A stretch of DNA of 64,000 nucleotides from Nitrosomonas sp. (GCF_043753625.1 NZ_JAYUWI010000118.1:4141-68140), one strand, 5' to 3'; shown: positions 36,633-57,594, counted from the first letter of the stretch. A program made the numbers and translations. Notes: a model not told the origin generated them from the sequence alone.

Positions 36633-37637
36633 TCATTCACGATAATGCACCGTAATGTTCAAATTACGAAATTCATTAAATAATGCAGGATCAGGCGGTA
36701 GCGGTAATGGTTTTGACAAAAAGATTGCGCGCTCAACCGCATTATCAAACGCCGCGTGCCCGCTACTCTTGCTTAACCTGACATCGAGAATATCACCGCC
36801 TGGGAGCAGTGTAACGTTGAATTCAGCAACCGGATTACCCGGCAAATCCGGTGGCATCACGATTCTGCTCTTTATCTTGGCAAGAATCAGGGCTTTATAT
36901 TTCGATATCTCATTTGTTACCTGATTCCTTGCCGCAGCTTGTTGTGCAGCGCGTTTCGCATCGGCTTCCCGCTGTGCTTTTGCTTCCCGCTCACGTTGCT
37001 GTTGTGCGGCCAGATCTTTTTCTTTCTGTTTCTGCAGTTCCTTCTGTTTTTCCAGTTCTTTCTGCTTTTCTAGTTCTTTTTGTTTATCCAATTCCTTTTG
37101 TTTATCTAGCTCTTTCTTTTTTTCAAGTTCTTTTTGCTTCTCTATATCTTTTAATCTTTCCTGCTCTTTAATTTTTTCTTGTTCTTTTTTCTTTTGTTCT
37201 TCCAGATCCGGCTTAGTCTCTTTAATCGGCTCAGGCTTCTGCTTCAACGCGATATCGGGTTTTTTTACAGGTGGTTCCACAACTGCTTTCTGTGGCACAG
37301 GCTTGACCGGTTCAGGCTTAACCGGCTCCGGTTTGGCTGGTTCCGGTTTGGGCGGCTCTGGTTTAGTTGGCTCCGGCTCCGGCTCCGGTTTAGGTTTGAC
37401 GGGCTCTGGAACTGGTTTAGGTTGCTTTGGAGGCGGTTGAGTTTTGACTGGTTCCTGGATAGGCTTAGGTAACTCAGTCCATATATCGACAACCATGCCT
37501 TCTGGTGGATGGTCCTTCCAATCCAAACCAAAAATCATTATCGCAACGAAAATAAGATGTACCAGTAGCGCCAGTACACCAGCCAATAATATTCTAGGTT
37601 CGGAAGGGGATGAATTGCGTAAGATGCTCACACTCAT
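36633..37637 (-). CDS. tolA: TolA
   Basis: N-terminal TM with AxxxH, Pro-rich and Lys/Glu-rich stalk, TonB-C-like C-terminal domain. Confidence 0.92.
   Translation of the reverse strand: MSVSILRNSSPSEPRILLAGVLALLVHLIFVAIMIFGLDWKDHPPEGMVVDIWTELPKPIQEPVKTQPPPKQPKPVPEPVKPKPEPEPEPTKPEPPKPEPAKPEPVKPEPVKPVPQKAVVEPPVKKPDIALKQKPEPIKETKPDLEEQKKKEQEKIKEQERLKDIEKQKELEKKKELDKQKELDKQKELEKQKELEKQKELQKQKEKDLAAQQQREREAKAQREADAKRAAQQAAARNQVTNEISKYKALILAKIKSRIVMPPDLPGNPVAEFNVTLLPGGDILDVRLSKSSGHAAFDNAVERAIFLSKPLPLPPDPALFNEFRNLNITVHYRE
37018..37143 (-). repeat. Degenerate 18-bp tandem repeat in tolA (about seven EKQKEL-type units)
   Basis: EKQKEL EKKKEL DKQKEL DKQKEL EKQKEL EKQKEL QKQKEK. Confidence 0.8.
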
Positions 37638-37647
37638 TACATATCGT

Positions 37648-38061
37648 TCATTTTTGTTGAGCCAGCAAACCCACTTTCTGCACTTGATTCTGCTGCAGAA
37701 TATCCATTACTTTAATCACTTCTTCGTAACGCACATTTTTATCAGCTGCAATCACGACCGGTTGCTCAGCATTTTGCGCCTGCTTTTGTTTAATGGCTTC
37801 AATCAATTGGTTTCTGTCTACTTTCTGTTCTGCCGCTGTTTTGGCACGATCACGCAAAGTCAGACTGCCATCTGCCTTAATGATCACTTCCAGAGGCGCT
37901 ACTGGTGTCGCTAAGGATTTACCAATTTGCGGTAACTCGATCTGTCCATGGTTAATCATCGGCGCTGTAATCATAAAAATAATTAACAGTACCAGCATCA
38001 CATCAATGTACGGCACCACATTGATCTCATTCATTAATCGATGTTTGGCACGACGCGCCAT
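37648..38061 (-). CDS. tolR: TolR
   Basis: EINVVPYIDVMLVLLIIFM and AADKNVRY. Confidence 0.96.
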   Translation of the reverse strand: MARRAKHRLMNEINVVPYIDVMLVLLIIFMITAPMINHGQIELPQIGKSLATPVAPLEVIIKADGSLTLRDRAKTAAEQKVDRNQLIEAIKQKQAQNAEQPVVIAADKNVRYEEVIKVMDILQQNQVQKVGLLAQQK

Positions 38062-46894: not shown

Positions 46895-48064
46895 TTAATT
46901 TAATGCGTGCTGCATCAGTTGATTCTTAATCAGCGGCAAGCGATTGGTTATTTCAAGCCCTAGATTCCGTAATCGGGCCAGCGTCGGATTGGAATTGTTG
47001 AATAGTTTCTGTAAGCTATCGGTCACTAATTCTAAAGCCAATATATCTTCCTTGCGCGCCAGCTCGTAACGCCGCAACAACATAAAATCACCACAATCTG
47101 TTTGCAATCCCCGCGCACTGAGTATCGCTGCAAGTTCCCGTGTTTCCCGCAAACCCAGGTTAACACCCTGTCCAGCCAGCGGATGAATGCCATGCGCTGC
47201 ATCACCGATCAGTACCAGTCGTGGCTTAACTAATTTTTCCACATGCACAAAATTTAACGGGAAACCCACCGGCGGTGTAATTAGTTGCAATGCACCCAGC
47301 GTATGCGAAGCGGCGGCTTCCACCTGTCGACAGAGATCTTCCGCCGGTAAATTGCGCAGTATCTCCGCCTGTTCTTCACTGGTAGACCAAACCATGGAAA
47401 CTCGCTTATCCGGTAACGGCAGCAACGCCAGCACACCATCCCGCCTGAACCACTGATGCGCAATATGACGGTGCGACAATTCCGCGCTAAAATTTGCCAC
47501 CACACCAATCTGGTTGTAGGCATGTTGTTTCACATCGATTTCAGCTTGCCTGCGCACCCAGGAATTTACGCCATCCGCACCTACCACCAATGCAGCCTGA
47601 AGCTGACTGCCGTCCGCCAATTGCACATCGACATGCGACTCCTGCCAGACAATTGCAGTACATTTTGCTGGACACAGTATTTGTATATTCTCGTTCGGGG
47701 ATTTGAGCACTTCCCAGACGGCTGTTTGTAGCTGGCGATTCTCCGCGATAAATGCCAGCTCCGATATGCCAATCTCATACGCGCTAAAATTAAGGTGCGA
47801 GCTATTGTCATCACCAAATACCGCCATCTCATAAACCGGTGCCACACGTTCAGCTTCCAAGCGCTGCCACACCCCCAATTCTTCCAGAAAAGCCGCGCTC
47901 CCCGGGCTAATCGCATAGACCCGGCTGTCCCAACTCTCATCTCGCGGCAATGGCATGGACTCATGCGGCTCTATCAACGCTATTTTCAAGCCACTATCCT
48001 TCAGCGCAGCCACCAGGCTTGCCCCAACGAGTCCGCCACCAATCACTATCATATCGAATTTCAT
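46895..48064 (-). CDS. UbiH/UbiF/VisC family FAD-dependent hydroxylase (start reassigned to ATG 48064)
   Basis: IGGGLVG, DSRVYAI, GADG and GDAAHGIHPLAGQGVNLG. Confidence 0.92.
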   Translation of the reverse strand: MKFDMIVIGGGLVGASLVAALKDSGLKIALIEPHESMPLPRDESWDSRVYAISPGSAAFLEELGVWQRLEAERVAPVYEMAVFGDDNSSHLNFSAYEIGISELAFIAENRQLQTAVWEVLKSPNENIQILCPAKCTAIVWQESHVDVQLADGSQLQAALVVGADGVNSWVRRQAEIDVKQHAYNQIGVVANFSAELSHRHIAHQWFRRDGVLALLPLPDKRVSMVWSTSEEQAEILRNLPAEDLCRQVEAAASHTLGALQLITPPVGFPLNFVHVEKLVKPRLVLIGDAAHGIHPLAGQGVNLGLRETRELAAILSARGLQTDCGDFMLLRRYELARKEDILALELVTDSLQKLFNNSNPTLARLRNLGLEITNRLPLIKNQLMQHALN

Positions 48065-48275
48065 AAAACTGATTATACAGCCGCTTTGTAACGGACGGGT
48101 AACACAAACTGCATACCCGCTGAACACGGGACTCTATTCATAACAGCCGACGAATCCGATGTCCGCGCATCTTCGTCAATAAACTTTAATCACCCACATT
48201 GATTTAAAGCGCAAATGAACTGGCTTCAATCCCATGAAAACACGCATAAACCCTTGTCAAGTCACATTTTTGAGC

Positions 48276-48312
48276 TTGACAAACCATCCCCTCAAAGGCA
48301 GAATGCCGCCTC
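48276..48312 (+). promoter_or_regulatory. Sigma70 stable-RNA promoter of tRNA-Met
   Basis: TTGACA (48276-48281), 17-nt spacer, CAGAAT (48299-48304) and GC-rich discriminator GCCGCCTC. Confidence 0.8.
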
Positions 48313-48328
48313 TTGCGTCTATGCATAT

Positions 48329-48404
48329 GGCGAATTAGCTCAGTGGTTAGAGCAGCGGAATCATAATCCGTTGGTCCCCAGTTCGAATCTGGGATTCGCT
48401 ACCA
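48329..48404 (+). tRNA. tRNA-Met(CAT), most likely elongator
   Basis: 76-nt cloverleaf: GGCGAAT/ATTCGCT acceptor, AGCTCAGTGGTTAGAGC D-arm, GCGGA-ATCATAA-TCCGT anticodon arm, GTTCGAATC T-loop and encoded CCA. Confidence 0.92.
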
Positions 48405-48412
48405 ATACAAAC

Positions 48413-48447
48413 AAGGGATTGGCCTAAATAGCCAATCCCTTTTCTTT
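48413..48447 (+). terminator. Intrinsic terminator of tRNA-Met
   Basis: AAGGGATTGGC-CTAAATA-GCCAATCCCTT followed by TTCTTT. Confidence 0.85.
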
Positions 48448-48606
48448 GCCGGGGTTATATGGATCCTTGCCACCATCCACCGGATTGCAAGCTCTGGTAT
48501 GACGTTTTCTCAATTACTTTCAATAATAAACTGCCATATCTATCAATATAAAGACTAAAATGAACAAAGTAGCAGAAAATTTAATTATCTATGGATTATT
48601 TTCTCG

Positions 48607-48972
48607 ATGAATAAGAAATTCTCTATTACATTAATAGCAGCAATCCTATTGCTTAATGGATGCGGCGCAGTAAGAGAAAACAGAATCAGACAAGATGTAT
48701 TATCTGACGCCAGCATGCCGGAAGAAATACGTAGGGCGATCGATCTAAAGCAATTAGTCGCTGGTATGACACAAGAACAAGTGATAGCTTCCTGGGGACT
48801 TCCTTGTAAATGGTGTTTTGGAACGCGCAAAAGTGCCAGTGGAGACACATGGGAATACCATCTTCCTGGATCGGATTCTGTAATTGTTGGCGCTGATTTT
48901 TTGGGTGTTGGAACCGGAACTTATTTGTACTTTGATAGCAGCCAGAAACTTAAGCATTGGTCCCAAAAATAG
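48607..48972 (+). CDS. Hypothetical lipoprotein (BamE/SmpA-like fold possible)
   Basis: Lipobox LNGC, GMTQEQVIASWGLP and a TWEY motif. Confidence 0.65.
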   Translation: MNKKFSITLIAAILLLNGCGAVRENRIRQDVLSDASMPEEIRRAIDLKQLVAGMTQEQVIASWGLPCKWCFGTRKSASGDTWEYHLPGSDSVIVGADFLGVGTGTYLYFDSSQKLKHWSQK

Positions 48973-49036
48973 AACTGATATTCCGTTCCAGAAGGCAGTC
49001 CGAAAATCTTTGCCTCCTTCACCCCTTAAATTGACT

Positions 49037-50518
49037 TTAATCTGACAGCGCCGCTGCAATTTCTCTGAAACTGTTCAGCCCGGCTTCCAAGTTCTCGATA
49101 ATTTCACCCGCCAGCACATCCGGCTCGGGCAGATTGTCTAAATCGGCCAAACTCTTATCCTTTAGCCAAAAAATATCCAGACTGGTTTTGTCGCGCGCAA
49201 CAATTTGATCAAAGCTGAATTTGCGCCAACGGCCTTCCGGGTTGCCTTGCTCGCTCCATGTTTCCTTGCGCTCGTGGCGGTTGAGCGGGTTATAGCAAGT
49301 AATGAATTCCTGCAAATCCTCAAAACGCAGTGGTTTCTTTTTTAACGTGTGATGAATATTGGTGCGGCAATCGTAATACCAGACTTCTTTCGTCCACGGT
49401 TCTTTGCTGGCTTCTCGGTTATCGAAGAACAACACATTTGCTTTCACGCCATTAGCGTAGAAAATACCGGTAGGCAATCGCAAGATCGTGTGCAATTCTG
49501 TGGTTTCCAGCAGTTTCTTGCGTACTGTTTCCCCCGCCCCGCCTTCAAACAGCACATTATCCGGCACCACCACTGCCGCCCGCCCGGTGGTTTTCAACAT
49601 GGTGCGGATATGTTGCACGAAGTTGAGTTGTTTGTTGGAAGTTGTTGCCCAGAAATCCTGCCGGTTATAGGTCAGATCGTCTTTTTCCTGTTCTCCTTCA
49701 TCATTGGTGAAACTCATCGCGCTCTTCTTGCCGAACGGCGGATTCGCCAGCACGTAATCGAAGCGGCGGCCGGAATCCGCGACCAGCGCATCATTCGGGG
49801 AAATCATGCTGTCACCGTCGATCTCGCCAATGTTATGCAAAAACATGTTCATCAAAGCGAGGCGCCTCGTGCTCGCGACAATTTCATTGCCAAAAAACGT
49901 TTCGTGTTTGAGAAATGCTTTTTGTGTTTTATCCATCGCATGCTCGGCGACCAGAAAATCATACGCCGCCAGAAAGAATCCGCTCGTGCCGCACGCCGGA
50001 TCGGCAATGGTCTTGCCGGGTTCCGGGCGCACGCATTGCACCATTGCCCGGATCAATGCGCGCGGCGTGAAGTATTGCCCTGCACCGGACTTGGTATCTT
50101 CCGCGTTGCGTTCCAACAGTCCCTCGTAGATGTCGCCCTTCACATCAGCGCCCATCGTCACCCACTGGGTTTCGTTCACCATATCGATCAGGCGGTACAG
50201 TTTGGCCGGGTCCTGGATTTTGTTTTGCGCCTTGGTAAAAATCGTCCCCAGCATTCCCGGCTTTTTGCCCAGCTCCATCAGCAGCGTCACATAATGCACC
50301 TCCAGTTCCGCGCCACGCTTGAGCTTAAGGCTTTGCCAGTTGTACTCGGCAGGAATATCCACGGTGCGGTTATACGGCGGCTGGCTGTATTCATCCGCCA
50401 TCTTCAGGAAAATCAAATACGTGAGTTGCTCCAGATAATCGCCATAACCCACCCCGTCATCGCGCAACGTGGTGCAGAAACTCCAGACTTTGGAAACGAT
50501 GGATGCAGTTGCGTTCAT
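49037..50518 (-). CDS. hsdM: Type I R-M methyltransferase subunit
   Basis: YLEQLTYLIFLKM, GQYFTPR, DPACGT and the N6-adenine motif NPPF. Confidence 0.95.
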   Translation of the reverse strand: MNATASIVSKVWSFCTTLRDDGVGYGDYLEQLTYLIFLKMADEYSQPPYNRTVDIPAEYNWQSLKLKRGAELEVHYVTLLMELGKKPGMLGTIFTKAQNKIQDPAKLYRLIDMVNETQWVTMGADVKGDIYEGLLERNAEDTKSGAGQYFTPRALIRAMVQCVRPEPGKTIADPACGTSGFFLAAYDFLVAEHAMDKTQKAFLKHETFFGNEIVASTRRLALMNMFLHNIGEIDGDSMISPNDALVADSGRRFDYVLANPPFGKKSAMSFTNDEGEQEKDDLTYNRQDFWATTSNKQLNFVQHIRTMLKTTGRAAVVVPDNVLFEGGAGETVRKKLLETTELHTILRLPTGIFYANGVKANVLFFDNREASKEPWTKEVWYYDCRTNIHHTLKKKPLRFEDLQEFITCYNPLNRHERKETWSEQGNPEGRWRKFSFDQIVARDKTSLDIFWLKDKSLADLDNLPEPDVLAGEIIENLEAGLNSFREIAAALSD

Positions 50519-50537
50519 GTCTTTGCCCCGAATACTT

Positions 50538-50849
50538 CGTCATTCCCGCGTAGGCGGGAATCCAGCCTTACACCAAGTCCGACCATAAATCTTTCCATGT
50601 CGGATTCATCTTTTCGATCAAATTTATTTTCCATTGTCTATTCCACTTTTTAAGTTGCTCCTCGCGTTGAATCGCTGCCAGACTCGTTGAATCAGATTAC
50701 TGGTTACACCGATATACAAAGTGCCGTTATATTGGCTCGCCAGAATATAAACCGCAGCTTGTTTTCCCATTACGCAACCGTCCTCGTTTTTTTCACAGGC
50801 AAGGAATCAGCCCTTAATCACATGGATTCCCGCCTGCGCGGGAATGACG
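50538..50849. mobile_element. 312-bp cassette bounded by 27-bp inverted dRS3/REP-like palindromes and carrying a GIY-YIG relic
   Basis: CGTCATTCCCGCGTAGGCGGGAATCCA (50538-50564) and TGGATTCCCGCCTGCGCGGGAATGACG (50823-50849) are reverse complements with 1 mismatch. Confidence 0.7.
50568..50770 (-). pseudogene. GIY-YIG (UPF0213/YhbQ-like) nuclease, internally deleted and frameshifted
   Basis: ATG 50770 gives MGKQAAVYILASQYNGTLYIGVTSNLIQRVWQ. A different frame then gives IQREEQLKKWNRQWKINLIEKMNPTWKDLWSDLV*; the middle segment is missing at about 50674. Confidence 0.85.
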
Positions 50850-50912
50850 GCAAGGGCGCCCTTGCTACTTTCGACAGTTATTACCCTCTCTATTACCCTT
50901 ACTAAAGGGTAA

Positions 50913-51959
50913 TTACCCTTTCTTTTTCCATCGAGCCGCTGGACCTCTGCCCTGGCATTCGACTGCGTTTGCATTTTTCTGCTCTCGCAAAACACGACGC
51001 ACCATGTCTTTGCTCACACCGGGACAAGACTGCTCCACCTGAGCCACAGTAAATTCGCCCACAAAGCGATCGATAGCTACCAACACCAGATTGGTCTTCG
51101 AGCCGCGTGGCGCTTTCACTTCACCCACACGCTCGGCAAATTCGCGGCAAGCCATCTTGAGAATGGACAACACGTAGTTGATGTAAGGCCACGGGTCATG
51201 CTTGCCATCATGCCAACCCTGCGAGCTTTGCTCCAGCGTCTCGTAATAGCGATCCTTGTTTTCTTCGATCAAACGCTCAAGGCTGATATAGCGCCCCACC
51301 TCATAGCCCGATTGATAACACTGAAGCAAAAGCGCCAACCGCGACACGCGCCCGTTGCCGTCGCGGAAAGGATGGATGCACAGAAAATCCAGATTGAATG
51401 CCGCCATCGCAATCAGTGGATGCGCCCAACGATCATCCAGGCAATACTGCCAATCAGTAACCAGCTCCATCATTGCGGCAGGGGTGCCCGCCGCAGACAC
51501 CGGGCGGAAACGAACCCGTTCACGACCATTCGCATAACGCTCGATGATGTCGCCGTCTTTTTCCTTGTATTGGCCCGCATCCCAGATTTGCCCGCGCGCC
51601 AGCCGGTGCAGCTCGCATATCGCCGTCTCGCTCACCGGCATGCGCGCAGCCCCTTCATGAATGAGCTTCAACGCATCGCGATAGCCGCGCACCTCTTCCT
51701 CGTCGCGATCCCGGAACAAAGGCCTAGCCGCAACCAGCAACTCGCGCACCCGCGACGGATCAACCGACACGCCTTCGATACGATTGGAAGAAACCGCGCT
51801 CTCGATCAGCGCATGCTCGCGCAAGGTCTTCAGCCGCTGCGGCGACTGCTGCGTATAAAGCGTCTGCTTGCCGCGGAATTCGCCGAGATCGGCGAGATAC
51901 CAGGACGTGCTGGCGGGAATGGAAAAATCTTTTAAAGCAAAAAGGCGCAGCGTGTTCAT
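50913..51959 (-). CDS. Fic-domain protein with N-terminal inhibitory helix and C-terminal HTH-like tail
   Basis: HPFRDGNGRVSR catalytic motif and SSNRIEG inhibitory motif. Confidence 0.92.
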   Translation of the reverse strand: MNTLRLFALKDFSIPASTSWYLADLGEFRGKQTLYTQQSPQRLKTLREHALIESAVSSNRIEGVSVDPSRVRELLVAARPLFRDRDEEEVRGYRDALKLIHEGAARMPVSETAICELHRLARGQIWDAGQYKEKDGDIIERYANGRERVRFRPVSAAGTPAAMMELVTDWQYCLDDRWAHPLIAMAAFNLDFLCIHPFRDGNGRVSRLALLLQCYQSGYEVGRYISLERLIEENKDRYYETLEQSSQGWHDGKHDPWPYINYVLSILKMACREFAERVGEVKAPRGSKTNLVLVAIDRFVGEFTVAQVEQSCPGVSKDMVRRVLREQKNANAVECQGRGPAARWKKKG

Positions 51960-52963
51960 GTCGTTTTCCTTTTTGTCTTGAGCGCAGTATCAGCCCGCTC
52001 CGCCTTGATGCGCGTCAGGAGCACCGAAGCGGGTTCGTCGTTTGGATCTTGCGGCACCAGTTGGCCGGAGAAGGCTTTTTTCAGGATGGATTGGCGCAGG
52101 GCTTCGGCTTGCTGTAAGGCGGTGGTGATGGTTTGGTCGAGTTGGTCGGCTTCGGAAAGGCGTGATGCCAAAGCTTCATTGACTGCTTCAGCTTCTATTT
52201 CAGAACAAATAGGCACAACGATTGACCGGATTCTGTCCTGTCCAATATTGCGCATGGATTCTTGATTACCAGTCGATAGCCGCATGATTTGGTTGCGCCC
52301 AATTCGGCTGCCTAGATACTGAAGAAAGTATTCCTGAGAAAACCCATCGAATCTAATGCGAAGCGTTTTATCACTCAGCATAATTTTCTTGGTTACCTTC
52401 CTTGCAATGACGCAGGCACCTACGAGATCAATAGTATTAGCTCTGCTTAAAATGAAATCGCCGCTCCGAATTAAATAGGCTTCATTTTCTTTCGAGGTGT
52501 CAGTGCAGGTCTTGCTTTCCGATTCATCATATTCACCCCACGTCACTGCACTTACTTTTGCCACACCTATTTCATTAGCACGCGGCTCACGTTCGTCACA
52601 CTTAAAACTTTTTCCTGCATCAATCGAATCAATGAAGTCGCCCAATTTGCACCACCTCCACCCCGCCGGCAGTTCGGGCAATTCGGCCAGTTCTTCGACG
52701 GTGAGTGGCGGCAGGAATTTCGGGGGCTTGGGTTTTGAAATCCCTCCTCGCTCCCCTTTTTCTAAGGGGGGGATGGGCGCGGTGCTGGCTGGCTTCCCTC
52801 TTTGTAAAAGGGGGATAGAGGGGGATTTTTCCCAGTCGGCGAGTTGTTGCTGGTAGCGTTGTGCGCGCTCTTGCTGGATGCGTTTCAGCAAAGTGTCGGC
52901 GGTTTCGAGGGGTTTGTCATTCCCTGTCACCCTCGCGAAGGCGGGGGGCAGGCGGGAATCCAT
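51956..52963 (-). CDS. hsdS: HsdS C-terminal half (linker, TRD2 and conserved helix); part of frameshift-split hsdS
   Basis: LPELPAGWRW, TRD and QALRQSILKKAFSGQLVPQDPNDEPAS; a possible ATG at 52963 lies inside the repeat. Confidence 0.8.
   Translation of the reverse strand: MDSRLPPAFARVTGNDKPLETADTLLKRIQQERAQRYQQQLADWEKSPSIPLLQRGKPASTAPIPPLEKGERGGISKPKPPKFLPPLTVEELAELPELPAGWRWCKLGDFIDSIDAGKSFKCDEREPRANEIGVAKVSAVTWGEYDESESKTCTDTSKENEAYLIRSGDFILSRANTIDLVGACVIARKVTKKIMLSDKTLRIRFDGFSQEYFLQYLGSRIGRNQIMRLSTGNQESMRNIGQDRIRSIVVPICSEIEAEAVNEALASRLSEADQLDQTITTALQQAEALRQSILKKAFSGQLVPQDPNDEPASVLLTRIKAERADTALKTKRKTT
52738..52828. repeat. In-frame palindromic insertion in hsdS (PPLEKGG-type family)
   Basis: AAATCCCTCCTCGCTCCCCTTTT ... 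AAAAGGGGGATAGAGGGGGATTT inverted arms, each with an internal CCCTTT/AAGGG hairpin; encodes KSPSIPLLQRGKPASTAPIPPLEKGERGGI. Confidence 0.75.
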
Positions 52964-53005
52964 GTCGTTCAAAGGCTGGCCCCCCCCCCCTTCGCGGGGG
53001 TGACG
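52916..53005. repeat. Composite dRS3/REP-like palindromes inside hsdS with a C11/G11 homopolymer at 52980-52990
   Basis: GTCATTCCC-TGTCACCCTCGCGAAGGCGGGGGG-CAGGCGGGAATCCAT ... GG-C11-TTCGCGGGGGTGACG. Confidence 0.85.
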
Positions 53006-53661
53006 TTCCGCTCCGCGCGCCACTGCGCGGTGAGTTTGCCCTCGAACGCATGTTTCAGCAGCGCTTGGCGATACACCTTGAGCTGTAATTGGGCGGTTTT
53101 CAGGTTTTCGATGCCCTTATCCAGCTCGGAAAACAGTTCTTCAATTTTGGCGACGATGCGGTGTTGTTCGTTTGTGGGTGGTAGCGGAACATCACAGGCA
53201 CTCAGGTAAGGAGTTGTCACGCGCCGCTGACCAACCGCACCAGACATATTGTGTTCTGCCTGGCGACGAAAGGCTTGAGATGATACGAAGTAGTAAATGT
53301 ACTTTGCGTTCACTCCAGATAGTGCACGAAGAACATGAAATTCGGTTGAACCAAAGCCAATACCATTTATGATTTCTGGCACTACAGCCATTTTCCCATT
53401 TTCCATACAGGGAGTTATCTTGGCAAATAGAACATCCCCTTCACAAAAAGGCGTGTAACCTTTTTTTACTTCCGAAAATTTGCGCTTACCGCCAACATCA
53501 ATTATTCCGCTTTCAGCTTGCACGGCTGGCATCGGTACAAATGAAACCTCTAAATCATCAGGAATACCAGCTTTATCAAGTGTCGGGTTTACAGAGACTA
53601 CTTCAGAAATCTTAGCATCACACCAAGCATGGGGTCGCCCGTTAACATTTACTTTCATCAC
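52969..53661 (-). CDS. hsdS: HsdS N-terminal half (TRD1 and conserved helix), ending just after the G11 tract
   Basis: LFAKITPCMENGK, PLPPTNEQHRIVAKIEELFSELD and YRQALLKHAFEGKL; start overlaps the hsdR stop. Confidence 0.88.
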   Translation of the reverse strand: MMKVNVNGRPHAWCDAKISEVVSVNPTLDKAGIPDDLEVSFVPMPAVQAESGIIDVGGKRKFSEVKKGYTPFCEGDVLFAKITPCMENGKMAVVPEIINGIGFGSTEFHVLRALSGVNAKYIYYFVSSQAFRRQAEHNMSGAVGQRRVTTPYLSACDVPLPPTNEQHRIVAKIEELFSELDKGIENLKTAQLQLKVYRQALLKHAFEGKLTAQWRAERNVTPAKGGGASL

Positions 53662-56471
53662 CCCACCAACACTTCATTCAACTCATCCAGCAACGGTTCC
53701 ATCCTTGCCCCAAACAACTGATGCATCCTGCCCAATCCGCCTTGTGCGTCGAACGGCGACATTTCCAGATCGTCGCGTTCGATGTGGAAGGAGTTAGCAA
53801 CGTGGTCGCGGATCATGTGCAGCCAGTTCATTTGCTCTTCGTTGAACTTCTCACCGCTGCCGGCGTGGCGTTGCATAATCCAGCTTTGGAAGTTGCGGCG
53901 TACGGTGTCGTCGAAGGGGGTTAGGGTTTTGTCCCAACCGCATACACGACGAATCAGTGCGACCAGTGTCGTGAGCTCATTGACTGGATTTCCGCCTGCC
54001 CCCCGCCTTCGCGAGGGTGACAGGGAATGGCGGGATTCCAGTTGTTGATACGCTTGCCACACGCTCAGTGGCGCGAGTTTGGGTTTGTCGGTTTTGAGTT
54101 TATCCAGCACTTGGCGGATCAGGGCGTAGCTGAGTTCACGCCTGCGATACGGCTGGCTGAAAAAGATGGTCAGTGCGGCAATGCTGTCTTGATTCGCCTT
54201 CAGGTAACCGGCAAATTCATCGGTTAAAGCTTGCGCATTGTTGGCGGCATCTTTGTCCCATTCGGCGCGCAACATTGTGTCGATGTTGTCGTGGTCGATG
54301 GTTTGTTCCTTGTCGCGGCGGATGGATTCGATGAGTTCGACCAGTTCGCCGTTCAATACTTTCGCGGCTTCAGTTACTAATTGCTGTTGCGCTTGCTGGC
54401 GTTTGTCGTCGCCGGGGTCTGAGCCGATGGGGAGCTTTGCCAGTTCCAGCGCACGCGCTTCGATGTTGTCGGCGTCGATTGCGCTGAATAATTTGCCGAC
54501 AAATTGGGTGAGTTCCATACCGCCAGCGAGTTCGCGGATGCGGCGCTGGTCATCGGTATCAAGTTGTTTGTTGAGCCGCGCCAGGCGACCGGCAAGCGAG
54601 CTGACAGTGTCTTCATCGGTTACGCCCATCATCACGCTCATCGCCAAATCCTTGAGTGGCACGCTGGGTTTAGTGATCAGCGGCTGGCTGGCGGTCTTAA
54701 GCGATTGGGTGACGCCGATGGCATCGACAATCACATAGTGGGTCTTGGCGCTGACGGCGGAGGGCGTGACTTTTTTCAGGTCGTCCATGTCCAGCGTGCG
54801 CGTGCCACGGCCTTTCATTTGCTCGAAATAGTTGCGGCTTTTCACGTCACGCATGAACACCAAACATTCCAGCGGCTTGACGTCGGTGCCGGTGGCGATC
54901 ATATCCACTGTGACGGCGATGCGCGGGTAATATTCATTGCGGAATTGCTGCAACACGGACTTGGGGTCTTCCTCGGTTTTGTAAGTGAGCTTTTTGCAAA
55001 AGGCGTTGCCCTCGTCAAATTCCTCGCGCACGGTCTGGATAATGTCGTCAGCGTGACTGTCTGTTTTGGCGAAGATCAGGGTCTTTGGCACTTCGCGGCG
55101 GCCGGGAAAAATCTCCGGCAGCTTGTCGCGGAAAGTACGAATGACGGTGCGGATTTGATCCGGGTTGACGATGTTGCGATCCAATTGCGTGTTGGAATAG
55201 GCTTCGTCTTCGTCCTGCATTTCCCAGCGCTTCTTGCGCGTGAGTTTTTCGCGTTTTTCCACTTGTTGCTTGGCGGTGATCTGCGCGCCTTGCTGGGTGA
55301 TCTGCGTTTCGATCACGTAGACTTCATTGCCAACGTTCACGCCATCCGCCACGGCCTTTTCGTGACTGTAATCGCTGACTACGTTTTTCTTGAAGAAACC
55401 GTAAGTGCGATTGTCCGGCGTGGCGGTTAAGCCGATCAGGCTGGCATCGAAATAGTCGATAACCTGTTGCCACAGGTTGTAGATGGAGCGGTGGCATTCG
55501 TCGATAAAGATGAAATCGAAGAATTCCGGCGGGACTTTTTCGTTATACACCACCGGCATCGGCGTTTTGGGTAGCGCCAATTCTGCAGGGTTAATTTCTT
55601 CGGCAGCATCATCGAGCGGCGTGTCTTTCAGGATGGAATACAAACGCTGGATGGTGCTGATGCACACCTGGCTATCCTTGGCGACAAAAGAAGATTTGAG
55701 GCGTTGCACGTTGTACAGCTCGGTAAACTTACGGTTATCGTCGAGCGGCACGTAGGACATCATTTCCTGCTCAGCCTGCTCGCCAAGATTTTTGGTATCG
55801 ACCAGAAACAGAATACGCTTGGCATTCGCATATTTGAGCAGGCGGTAAATTGAGGTGATGGCGGTGTAAGTTTTACCCGCGCCGGTTGCCATTTGAATCA
55901 GGGCGCGCGGACGACCCGCCTTAAACGAGGCTTCCAGATTGATGATGGCGGTTTCCTGGCAATCACGCAGGTGCAATTCCCTGGCGGGCAAGTGATTGGG
56001 ATTGAGCAGCGGAATATGGTGCAAACGTTCGCGCAGGCTGGCATCTTGCGCCAGCCTTTCTTTGAGCGTCTCGGGGCGGTGAAAATTGAATACTTCACGC
56101 GAGCGGGGTTTGGGATCACGGCCGTCGGTGAAACGGGTGATGATGCCGGTACTTTGGTAGAGGAAAGGCAAGGGTTCTTTGTTATTGACCCACTTGAGCG
56201 GAGCCGCCGCGTAGTCTTCAGTTTGAGTTTCATGCGCAGTGAGCCGCTGACCTTCTTCTTCACGCTTGGCTTCGATTACGCCGATTGCTTTTTTATCCAC
56301 GAACAGCACGTAATCCGCCGGACCGGCATCGGTCTGGTATTCACGCACCGCTTGGCCTAATCCAACATTCAGATCAATCTTTTTGGCTGATTGAACAACC
56401 CAGTTCGCTTGCCTAAGCAATGCATCAATGTTGTCACGGGCTTTTTGTTCTGGATTCTGGTTTTCGGTCAT
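53658..56471 (-). CDS. hsdR: Type I R-M restriction subunit (start reassigned to ATG 56471)
   Basis: ADY...IEAK nuclease motif, MATGAGKT, IDECHRS, TATP, QMKGRGTR and EcoEI-R-like C-terminus. Confidence 0.95.
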   Translation of the reverse strand: MTENQNPEQKARDNIDALLRQANWVVQSAKKIDLNVGLGQAVREYQTDAGPADYVLFVDKKAIGVIEAKREEEGQRLTAHETQTEDYAAAPLKWVNNKEPLPFLYQSTGIITRFTDGRDPKPRSREVFNFHRPETLKERLAQDASLRERLHHIPLLNPNHLPARELHLRDCQETAIINLEASFKAGRPRALIQMATGAGKTYTAITSIYRLLKYANAKRILFLVDTKNLGEQAEQEMMSYVPLDDNRKFTELYNVQRLKSSFVAKDSQVCISTIQRLYSILKDTPLDDAAEEINPAELALPKTPMPVVYNEKVPPEFFDFIFIDECHRSIYNLWQQVIDYFDASLIGLTATPDNRTYGFFKKNVVSDYSHEKAVADGVNVGNEVYVIETQITQQGAQITAKQQVEKREKLTRKKRWEMQDEDEAYSNTQLDRNIVNPDQIRTVIRTFRDKLPEIFPGRREVPKTLIFAKTDSHADDIIQTVREEFDEGNAFCKKLTYKTEEDPKSVLQQFRNEYYPRIAVTVDMIATGTDVKPLECLVFMRDVKSRNYFEQMKGRGTRTLDMDDLKKVTPSAVSAKTHYVIVDAIGVTQSLKTASQPLITKPSVPLKDLAMSVMMGVTDEDTVSSLAGRLARLNKQLDTDDQRRIRELAGGMELTQFVGKLFSAIDADNIEARALELAKLPIGSDPGDDKRQQAQQQLVTEAAKVLNGELVELIESIRRDKEQTIDHDNIDTMLRAEWDKDAANNAQALTDEFAGYLKANQDSIAALTIFFSQPYRRRELSYALIRQVLDKLKTDKPKLAPLSVWQAYQQLESRHSLSPSRRRGAGGNPVNELTTLVALIRRVCGWDKTLTPFDDTVRRNFQSWIMQRHAGSGEKFNEEQMNWLHMIRDHVANSFHIERDDLEMSPFDAQGGLGRMHQLFGARMEPLLDELNEVLVG
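53984..54041. repeat. Composite palindrome inserted in frame in hsdR
   Basis: CTGGATTTCCGCCTGCCCCCCGCCTTCGCGAGGGTGACAGGGAATGGCGGGATTCCAG; same core as the hsdS copy in the opposite orientation; read as SRHSLSPSRRRGAGGNP. Confidence 0.8.
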
Positions 56472-56811
56472 ATTTAAAACACACAAGAATCATATCTCTT
56501 GATCTGCTTCCCTATCTTTATTCAACACATGATAGCGTACAGTGCTTAAAAAGCCACGAAGTACCTTGCTACAAATGGTTTGCTTAAATCTTGTACTGTG
56601 AAAACCTTAAATTCATTAATACGGAATTTCTCTTTAGCAGCCCGCTGAATTTAAAGCTGAAGCTCTGTCACTGAGAGCGGAGATCAATCAGTATTGATGC
56701 ATTTTCCTAAAGGAGATATTTCAGGCATATTTAAGGATTTATTGTGCAAATTAGAAGTACTCCTTCTCCATGAGTAAATCTGATAGTATTTTTATTTCAG
56801 GATGAGAACCC

Positions 56812-57594
56812 ATGATTATTGTTATTTCGCCAGCAAAAACACTGAATTTTGAAACGCCAGCCATCACGCAGGAGCATACGCAGCCTGGTTTTCTCGATGA
56901 TTCAGCCGAACTGATCGACCAACTCAGAAAACTGGAGCCGGATCAAGTCGGCAAGTTGATGTCTATCAGCTCTAATCTCGCTGTTCTAAATTCAAACCGC
57001 TATTTCGCCTGGAATCGCCCATTTGACATGAAAAATGCCAAACAGGCAGTACTCGCTTTCAAAGGAGATGTTTACACAGGTTTGGATGCAGATACACTGA
57101 CCGTTGCAGATTTGGCTTTTGCGCAGGATCATTTACGCATTCTGTCCGGATTGTATGGCGTGTTGCGTCCGCTGGATCTGATGCAGGCTTACCGGCTGGA
57201 AATGGGCACCCAGTTCAAGAATTCGCGCGGCAATAATCTGTACGAATTCTGGGACGATAAAATCACCCAAGCGCTCAATCAGGATTTGAAAAAACAAAAA
57301 ACAGATATTCTGATCAATCTGGCTTCCATTGAATATTTTCAGTCCGTGCAGAAGAACAAATTAAACGCACGCATCATCACTCCGGTTTTCAAAGATGAAA
57401 AAAACGGTGTTTACAAAATAATCAGTTTTTTCGCCAAGAAAGCGCGTGGCTTGATGAGCCGCTATATCATCCAGAACAAGCTGACAAACCCTGAAGATAT
57501 CAAACACTTCACTAGTTCAGGTTATCAGTTTAGTGAAGATGCCAGCAACCGTGATGAATGGATTTTCACTCGCGCGGAATCAAGATCAATTTGA
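56812..57594 (+). CDS. yaaA: Peroxide stress protein YaaA
   Basis: ISPAKTL, LSGLYGVLRPLDLMQAYRLEMG and AKKARG. Confidence 0.95.
   Translation: MIIVISPAKTLNFETPAITQEHTQPGFLDDSAELIDQLRKLEPDQVGKLMSISSNLAVLNSNRYFAWNRPFDMKNAKQAVLAFKGDVYTGLDADTLTVADLAFAQDHLRILSGLYGVLRPLDLMQAYRLEMGTQFKNSRGNNLYEFWDDKITQALNQDLKKQKTDILINLASIEYFQSVQKNKLNARIITPVFKDEKNGVYKIISFFAKKARGLMSRYIIQNKLTNPEDIKHFTSSGYQFSEDASNRDEWIFTRAESRSI

Follow-up and report, generated by a model that had tools for sequence, protein, structure and literature searches.

A type I restriction-modification island with an interrupted hsdS gene

The stretch of Nitrosomonas sp. DNA analyzed here (64 kb; hereinafter the window) encompasses a type I restriction-modification (R-M) system, with HsdR, HsdM and an HsdS comprising two TRDs and two helices, all encoded in one locus. 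The genes are arranged as a minus-strand operon in the order hsdR, hsdS N-half, hsdS C-half, Fic/DOC, GIY-YIG remnant and hsdM. Both hsdR (53658..56486; ResIII, helicase C and EcoEI_R_C domains identified with Pfam/NCBIfam) and hsdM (49037..50518; 493 aa; HsdM_N and N6_Mtase, E 5e-71) are intact, and no second lesion is present in either of these genes or in the 1-kb stop-free TRD2 frame of hsdS. The Fic/DOC family gene (50913..51959, minus strand) is located between hsdS and hsdM; the GIY-YIG gene that follows it has undergone an internal deletion of ~80 nt and a frameshift, and is intact, encoding 96-108 aa, in four of the related loci (L006-L008 and L010).

The 7.5-kb block that contains the R-M genes (49000-56500) has a GC content of 51-54%, compared with 39-47% in the flanks, and ends ~630 nt from a tRNA-Met gene (CAT; 48329-48404), which was the only match in an Rfam scan of positions 48000-57500. 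Judging from this contrast in composition and from the adjoining tRNA gene, the block is consistent with a horizontally acquired island. It is bordered by housekeeping genes, with a UbiH-like monooxygenase at one end and yaaA and rpiA at the opposite end. The closest public DNA belongs to a contig of a Nitrosomonas sp. MAG (L014) that is 94-95% identical to the window over the D2-fic-hsdM region and beyond, and most of the other relatives are also Nitrosomonas MAGs. The TRDs differ among relatives that are 92-95% identical elsewhere (TRD shuffling). At a distance from the island, the window contains at least eight tandem 18-nt repeats (37015-37194) inside a gene for a protein with a TolA/TonB C-terminal domain (36636-37706, minus strand), which represent an ordinary Lys/Glu-rich helical TolA repeat.

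The hsdS gene is interrupted by a run of 11 G on the minus strand (52990-52980; C11 on the plus strand) in the context GAA + G11 + CCAGCC, within the broader minus-strand sequence ...CGGAACGTCACCCCCGCGAA-G11-CCAGCCTTTGAACGACATGGATTCC.... In the frame set by G11, the N-half (52969..53661, minus strand) encodes 230 aa that include TRD1 and the complete first dimerization helix, D1 (Pfam Methylase_S), with the C-terminus ...WRAERNVTPAKGGGASL followed by a TGA stop (52969..52971). Five nucleotides downstream of this stop, an ATG (52963-52961) lies in the frame of TRD2. From this codon, the C-half (51956..52963, minus strand) extends without an internal stop over 335 aa, in which TRD2 and helix D2 are preceded by a tail helix and a second palindromic insert; the ORF finder stretches this frame upstream to a GTG at 53023, for a total of 355 aa (P0004), which corresponds to the gene annotated on the 77-kb source contig. 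When the tract was edited in silico, G9 and G12 fused the two halves into proteins of 567 aa and 568 aa, respectively; G8, G11 and G14 led to a stop near residue 230, and G7, G10 and G13 to a stop near residue 247, so that two-thirds of the frame classes yield a truncated N-half and one-third the fusion. The position of the run, the stop and the neighboring ATG, and the joining of the halves by 9 or 12 G had all been reported in a first-pass annotation of this DNA and are borne out by the sequence.

The tract is exceptional in its surroundings. It is the longest run of any base in the window and the sole G/C homopolymer of at least 9 nt (shuffled sequences are expected to contain 0.2 G9 matches), and no G/C runs of at least 8 nt were found across 217 kb of related loci. 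Scans for sigma-70 promoters and terminators gave no more sites than shuffled sequences and are uninformative as to whether the C-half or hsdM has an internal promoter of its own.

At the protein level, the best profile match of the HsdS is the S subunit of EcoKI (2y7c, E 3e-43), and the domain order is EcoKI-like. When taken alone, TRD2 falls below the Pfam threshold, but both NF007278 and the fold predicted with AlphaFold2 (AF2) include it. In the AF2 model of the G12-fused protein (mean pLDDT 70), TRD1 is followed by helix D1 (163-205), a disordered segment (220-249), a short helix (255-279), a second disordered segment (281-311), TRD2 (~335-485), helix D2 (488-530) and a tail helix. The tract corresponds to residues ~222-225, after D1 and before TRD2. 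The first disordered segment (pLDDT <50) is the REP-coded peptide that includes the tract and the other one is the second insert; the break is thus predicted to fall in a loop, with TRD1 and D1 retained in full by the N-half. The two halves of the protein are homologous, and so are their helices with the tails (E 1e-10), down to the shared DEPA..LL.RI..ER tail; D1 and D2 are ~25% identical over the aligned half.

Palindromic inserts of the linker and the origin of the tract

The tract is part of a palindromic insert of 90 nt in the linker region of hsdS (52916..53005, minus strand). In this insert, two CGTC-tagged REP hairpins of the dRS3/RPE kind are joined tail to tail as a dimer, and the loop of the right-hand one contains a nested third unit. 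Elements of this class, among them Neisseria dRS3 and Rickettsia RPE-4 and RPE-6, are characterized by a CGTC head, a stem of 8-9 bp, a loop of 4-5 nt and a CCA tail, and are found as dimers and also within the reading frames of protein-coding genes (Di Nocera et al., 2013, PMC3733652). The unit architecture in the window is the same: a canonical unit, CGTC-ATTCCCGC-GTAG-GCGGGAAT-CCA (50538..50564, plus strand), contains the head, an 8-bp stem, a 4-nt loop and the tail and, together with an inverted partner (50823..50849, minus strand), flanks the GIY-YIG remnant. The tail-to-tail arrangement of the dimer is one that the same authors term rare (PMC3733652). The five CGTC REP units detected in the window are all located inside the R-M island. 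As single-stranded DNA, the 90-nt insert is predicted to fold into a long hairpin (-28.5 kcal/mol, z -3.7), with the G run base-paired to a C6 run of the other arm; this C6 run (52943..52948, minus strand) belongs to the nested unit. The sibling arm, GGCGGGGGG, which had been noticed in the first-pass annotation, is real: positions 52926-52955 read GTCACCCTCGCGAAGGCGGGGGGCAGGCGG and pair with the arm that carries the G tract in the long hairpin.

Two further palindromic sequences are associated with the same genes. A 45-nt nested REP copy that is 98% identical to 52918-52962 is present in inverted orientation and in frame inside hsdR (53985..54029, minus strand), in the region that encodes the C-terminal EcoEI_R_C domain. 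This composite is shared by the hsdR genes of L021, L027 and L028 and is missing in L003, L004 and L017, which points to copying between hsdS and hsdR within a single sub-clade. The second insert of the hsdS linker (52738..52828, minus strand; 91 nt) is unrelated to the REP dimer and also is in frame, coding for SPSIPLLQRGKPASTAPIPPLEKGERGGIS. Its DNA reads AAATCCCCCTC...GAGGAGGGATTT, the encoded peptide, SPSIPLLQRGK...PPLEKGERGGIS, is predicted to be disordered, and related versions are found in L014, P0007 and P0122. The inter-TRD linker thus seems to be a safe harbor for palindromic repeats. A literature search for the REP-coded peptide strings produced no match.

The age of the 90-nt insert can be assessed from its distribution. 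A gapped pattern for the REP dimer, run against 185,579 species genomes and the JGI metagenomes, detected 7 loci in the former and 13 in the latter, all of them in hsdS homologues, where the dimer invariably occupies one codon position, immediately following the conserved ...FEGKLTxQWRxE... motif. When these matches are combined with the loci fetched via their proteins, 32 dimer-bearing relatives are available (L001-L011 and L013-L033), and the codon position of the insert is identical in all 32; REP-free relatives, such as P0002/L012, P0003 and P0014, lack the 90-nt insert. Because the dimer occupies a single codon position in all these relatives, the insert is an old, inherited part of the conserved linker of this hsdS family. 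The possibility that the insert is a dispersed mobile element that landed recently was rejected given that all 7 genome and 13 metagenome matches map to this one site. Unlike the dispersed CGTC-tagged REPs, the dimer with its spacer is found only in hsdS homologues at that site, and accordingly now behaves as a part of the gene rather than a dispersed repeat. The proposal in the first-pass annotation that a mobile palindrome created a switch de novo therefore fails with respect to the insert; what is new amounts to two substitutions and 2 nt.

The relatives also reveal the precursor of the tract. In the hsdS insert of the relatives, the left unit reads CGTC-ACCCCCGC-GAAG-GCGGGGGT-CCA, with GCGGGGG(T/C) as the 3' stem half, and at the exact position of G11, 31 of the 32 relatives contain GAA-GGCGGGGG(T/C)-CCAGCC, where the segment that corresponds to the tract is 9 nt long, in frame and codes for KAG(A/V)Q; in the closest element (L028), the tract position reads GGCGGGGGC. 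The window allele differs from the relatives by a C-to-G and a C/T-to-G substitution and by two extra G, such that the tract (52980..52990, minus strand) is made up of the mutated 3' stem half together with the final G of the GAAG loop and the 2 additional G. By alignment with the relatives, G11 demonstrably derives from the stem of the conserved CGTC-REP hairpin, as had been suggested from the repeat itself. The two substitutions alone would yield an in-frame G9 (KGGGQ). According to the comparison, both non-G bases were replaced in the 3' stem half of the left hairpin, and the resulting G9 was later extended by two G, either directly or through a gain of three G and a loss of one. Given that the run is 2 nt longer than the ancestral 9, at least one slippage event has already occurred. 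Correction templated by the sibling arm of the hairpin was considered as a source of the run and rejected, because that arm would yield GGCGGGGGG and not G11.

No allele with 8 or more G at the tract position was found in the metagenome scan or among the 7 genome loci, and the window allele, or even its TRD1 at >91% identity, is absent from all the collections searched. Look-ups for identical copies of the N-half, taken from either of its potential starts, and of HsdM likewise gave no match, and a second assembly of the strain did not turn up. As far as these comparisons reach, what is new and specific to this genome is the purification of the run to G and its lengthening, the insert itself being inherited.

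Further frameshift alleles of the same insert occur in relatives. In the Nitrosomonas sp. RBC022 MAG (L015; 6777-6900) and in an independent Logan assembly (L033; 1900-2000), the nested REP unit contains C7 in place of the C6 run, a separate +1 frameshift. The product of the C7 allele is an N-half HsdS of 252-260 aa that ends in LPPRFREGDRE (252 aa in P0121, from L033), and the downstream frame is open to the contig ends; the contig of P0121 terminates 150 nt past the stop. In a third locus, which is already degraded (L023; LNFM01021336.1), the same REP G-run as in the window has gained one G (G5 to G6). Thus, the G/C runs of one insert account for three independent frameshift alleles (the window, L023 and L015/L033) among 33 sequences, which represent fewer independent lineages. 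This recurrence fits the view that the G/C runs of the hairpin are mutational hot spots.

Phase variation, decay or sequencing error

The closest parallel to the interrupted gene is NgoAV of N. gonorrhoeae FA1090, in which an HsdS1 of 208 aa is produced when the tract consists of 7 G and recognizes GCAN8TGC, whereas the loss of one G results in a fusion that recognizes GCAN7STCA (PMC9577141). In both systems, a poly-G tract is located between TRD1 and TRD2, the out-of-frame product is a protein of ~210-230 aa consisting of TRD1 and the central helix, and one length class joins the two ORFs into a full-length HsdS, in our case in silico (PMC9577141). The precedent cited in the first-pass annotation is correctly described there (PMC9577141, PMC7383803). 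There are also clear differences. In NgoAV, variation between 6 and 9 G has been documented in 92 strains and both specificities have been measured, whereas the allele in the window is a single sequence. Furthermore, NgoAV is a type IC system, whereas the HsdS in the window is closest to EcoKI-type S subunits, and the C-half of NgoAV is itself inactive, whereas the TRD2 frame is intact here.

More generally, phase-variable hsdS genes have been delineated by mononucleotide runs of at least 9 nt that are always located between the TRDs, and account for 7.8% of the hsdS genes in REBASE, including those of environmental bacteria, according to the survey by Atack et al. (2020, PMC7383803); G[12] in Salmonella enterica serovar India is one example. 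The hsdS gene of the window shares these sequence features, with a run of at least 9 nt that is in frame, lies between the TRDs and toggles the product in silico, next to an intact hsdM (PMC7383803). The distinguishing feature of the present tract is that its origin can be traced to a REP stem, with the interrupted ancestral state preserved in ~30 relatives; such an origin is not mentioned in the passages of PMC7383803 consulted.

With these parallels in mind, we tentatively favor, at somewhat short of an even chance, the interpretation that G11 is a real, recently arisen, slippage-prone and functionally toggling tract, which would make this gene a candidate member of the known class of NgoAV-type phase-variable hsdS genes. 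In its present state, the locus combines the 230-aa TRD1 + D1 half with the open 335-aa TRD2 + D2 frame. Slipped-strand mispairing at G11 would be expected to produce in-frame G12 or G9 at a raised rate. Because slippage regenerates these alleles, the population should be a mixture of cells with the full-length HsdS, directed to an asymmetric bipartite site, and cells with the N-half. If active, the N-half would dimerize via D1 and, like its NgoAV counterpart, target HsdM to palindromic sites of the TRD1-TRD1 type. Such behavior may be that of a contingency locus under selection or an accident that precedes the loss of the gene. With respect to the switch proposed in the first-pass annotation, the part that holds is the toggling in silico between the fused and split states by a tract located between the TRDs; actual length variation did not come to light, with no alleles of 8 or more G in the metagenome scan. 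The accompanying claim that half-HsdS dimers can recognize symmetric sites is correct for type IC enzymes, where alone such homodimers have been shown, with none reported outside type IC (PMC3874165), and the HsdS in question is EcoKI-like. The engineered halves of EcoR124I, HsdS(delta50), and of EcoDXXI, deltaC/deltaN, resemble the present N-half in that a cut after the central helix preserves TRD1 and the dimerization helix, and show that a break between the halves is tolerated; in these type IC proteins, however, D1 and D2 are nearly identical, whereas here they are homologous but only ~25% identical.

The decay of related loci makes a serious rival of the plain frameshift pseudogene, although on balance we consider it unlikely. 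Under this interpretation, the R-M island has entered the first stages of decay and G11 arose by chance mutation and plays no role in switching, with the halves inactive or irrelevant. One case in point is a locus that shares its chromosomal site with the window (L032; LNFM01021619.1), in which both flanks, the yaaA flank and the hsdM side, are 88-92% identical to the window and hsdM is intact, but hsdR and hsdS are reduced to fragments. The degraded locus with an extra G in the same run (L023), the internal deletion in the GIY-YIG gene of the window, the foreign composition of the island next to a tRNA gene, and the failure to find tract polymorphism in the metagenome scan all point in the same direction. 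Against decay, hsdR, hsdM and the entire 1-kb TRD2 frame are free of a second lesion, and both TRD1 and D1 are complete in the N-half. Moreover, a run of 11 G is intrinsically unstable, so that reversion is physically expected regardless of selection.

A miscalled homopolymer length, where the true run would be an in-frame G9 or G12 and hsdS a normal full-length gene, is rather improbable. The longest run in the window, situated in a GC-rich hairpin, is the hardest context for any sequencing platform, a change of -2 or +1 suffices to restore the frame, and all other features of the operon look functional. However, the window contains 17 homopolymers of 7-8 nt inside intact ORFs, at a coding density of ~90%, which argues against pervasive homopolymer error in the assembly, and a length error leaves the two base substitutions to pure G unexplained. 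A poly-G artefact of two-color chemistry was rejected, given that the run is only 11 nt long, lies in the middle of a contig and has unique sequence on both sides.

Another explanation, which we regard as very improbable, is that the gene is split but functional with its specificity unchanged: translation would terminate and reinitiate at ATG 52963, and the halves would pair via D1 and D2 into the normal bipartite specificity. The model for such an arrangement is EcoDXXI, in which co-expression of the N- and C-terminal halves of HsdS restored wild-type activity and specificity (PMC3874165); the production of both halves, accordingly, need not imply a change in specificity. The ATG, located 5 nt past the stop in the TRD2 frame, the position of the break in a linker predicted to be disordered, and the existence of an independent split allele of the same insert in two assemblies (L015 and L033) agree with this possibility. 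However, no Shine-Dalgarno sequence was found 5-12 nt from the ATG, and the codon itself is the conserved internal Met of the repeat-coded LNDMDSR, present in every in-frame relative. For these two reasons, it is not an evolved restart: the first-pass annotation was right that the repeat supplies this codon, which is an inherited part of the repeat rather than a derived start. In addition, uncontrolled stoichiometry of the halves would be expected to produce mixed specificities rather than the wild type alone. Finally, transcriptional slippage on G11/C11, by which a single fixed allele would give rise to mixed mRNAs and hence to both truncated and full-length HsdS, is extremely improbable, because tract length is the one feature in its favor, the RNA would have to shift by +1 or -2, and RNA polymerase slippage, established as it is on long homopolymers, is known mainly from A/T runs and best documented for those of at least 9 nt.

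Implications for the evolution of HsdS specificity

If the tract does switch, the island would encode a phase-variable type I specificity, that is, a potential phasevarion or a variable phage barrier, in a lineage of environmental ammonia oxidizers. Phase-variable type I specificity loci have been studied almost exclusively in host-adapted pathogens, and SSR contingency loci are not known from Nitrosomonas-like bacteria, which speaks against a switch here. The path to the homopolymer is also unusual in that it can be read from ~30 relatives, from the REP stem through two substitutions to slippage. If the tract does not switch, the locus would be an unremarkable pseudogene at an early stage, within an R-M island that was acquired horizontally and is decaying.

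The recurrent frameshifts in the insert invite a broader reading, which we consider improbable, namely that the REP hairpins of the linker are a built-in frameshift fuse, the G/C runs of which repeatedly and independently turn the full-length protein into a half-HsdS, and that the allele in the window is the stage at which such a run has become a genuine homopolymer switch that can be reversed. Should this reading prove true, a phase-variable methyltransferase specificity would have been documented to arise de novo, in a free-living nitrifier, out of a selfish palindromic repeat.

Half-size S subunits of this family also occur naturally in an operon setting, which counts in favor of the switch. 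One such protein (P0138; L035, 1609-2951) consists of 233 aa, with a single TRD and one helix, and is encoded directly upstream of fic; another one (P0141) consists of 212 aa. The protein followed by fic suggests that S subunits with a single TRD are a standing feature of this R-M family.
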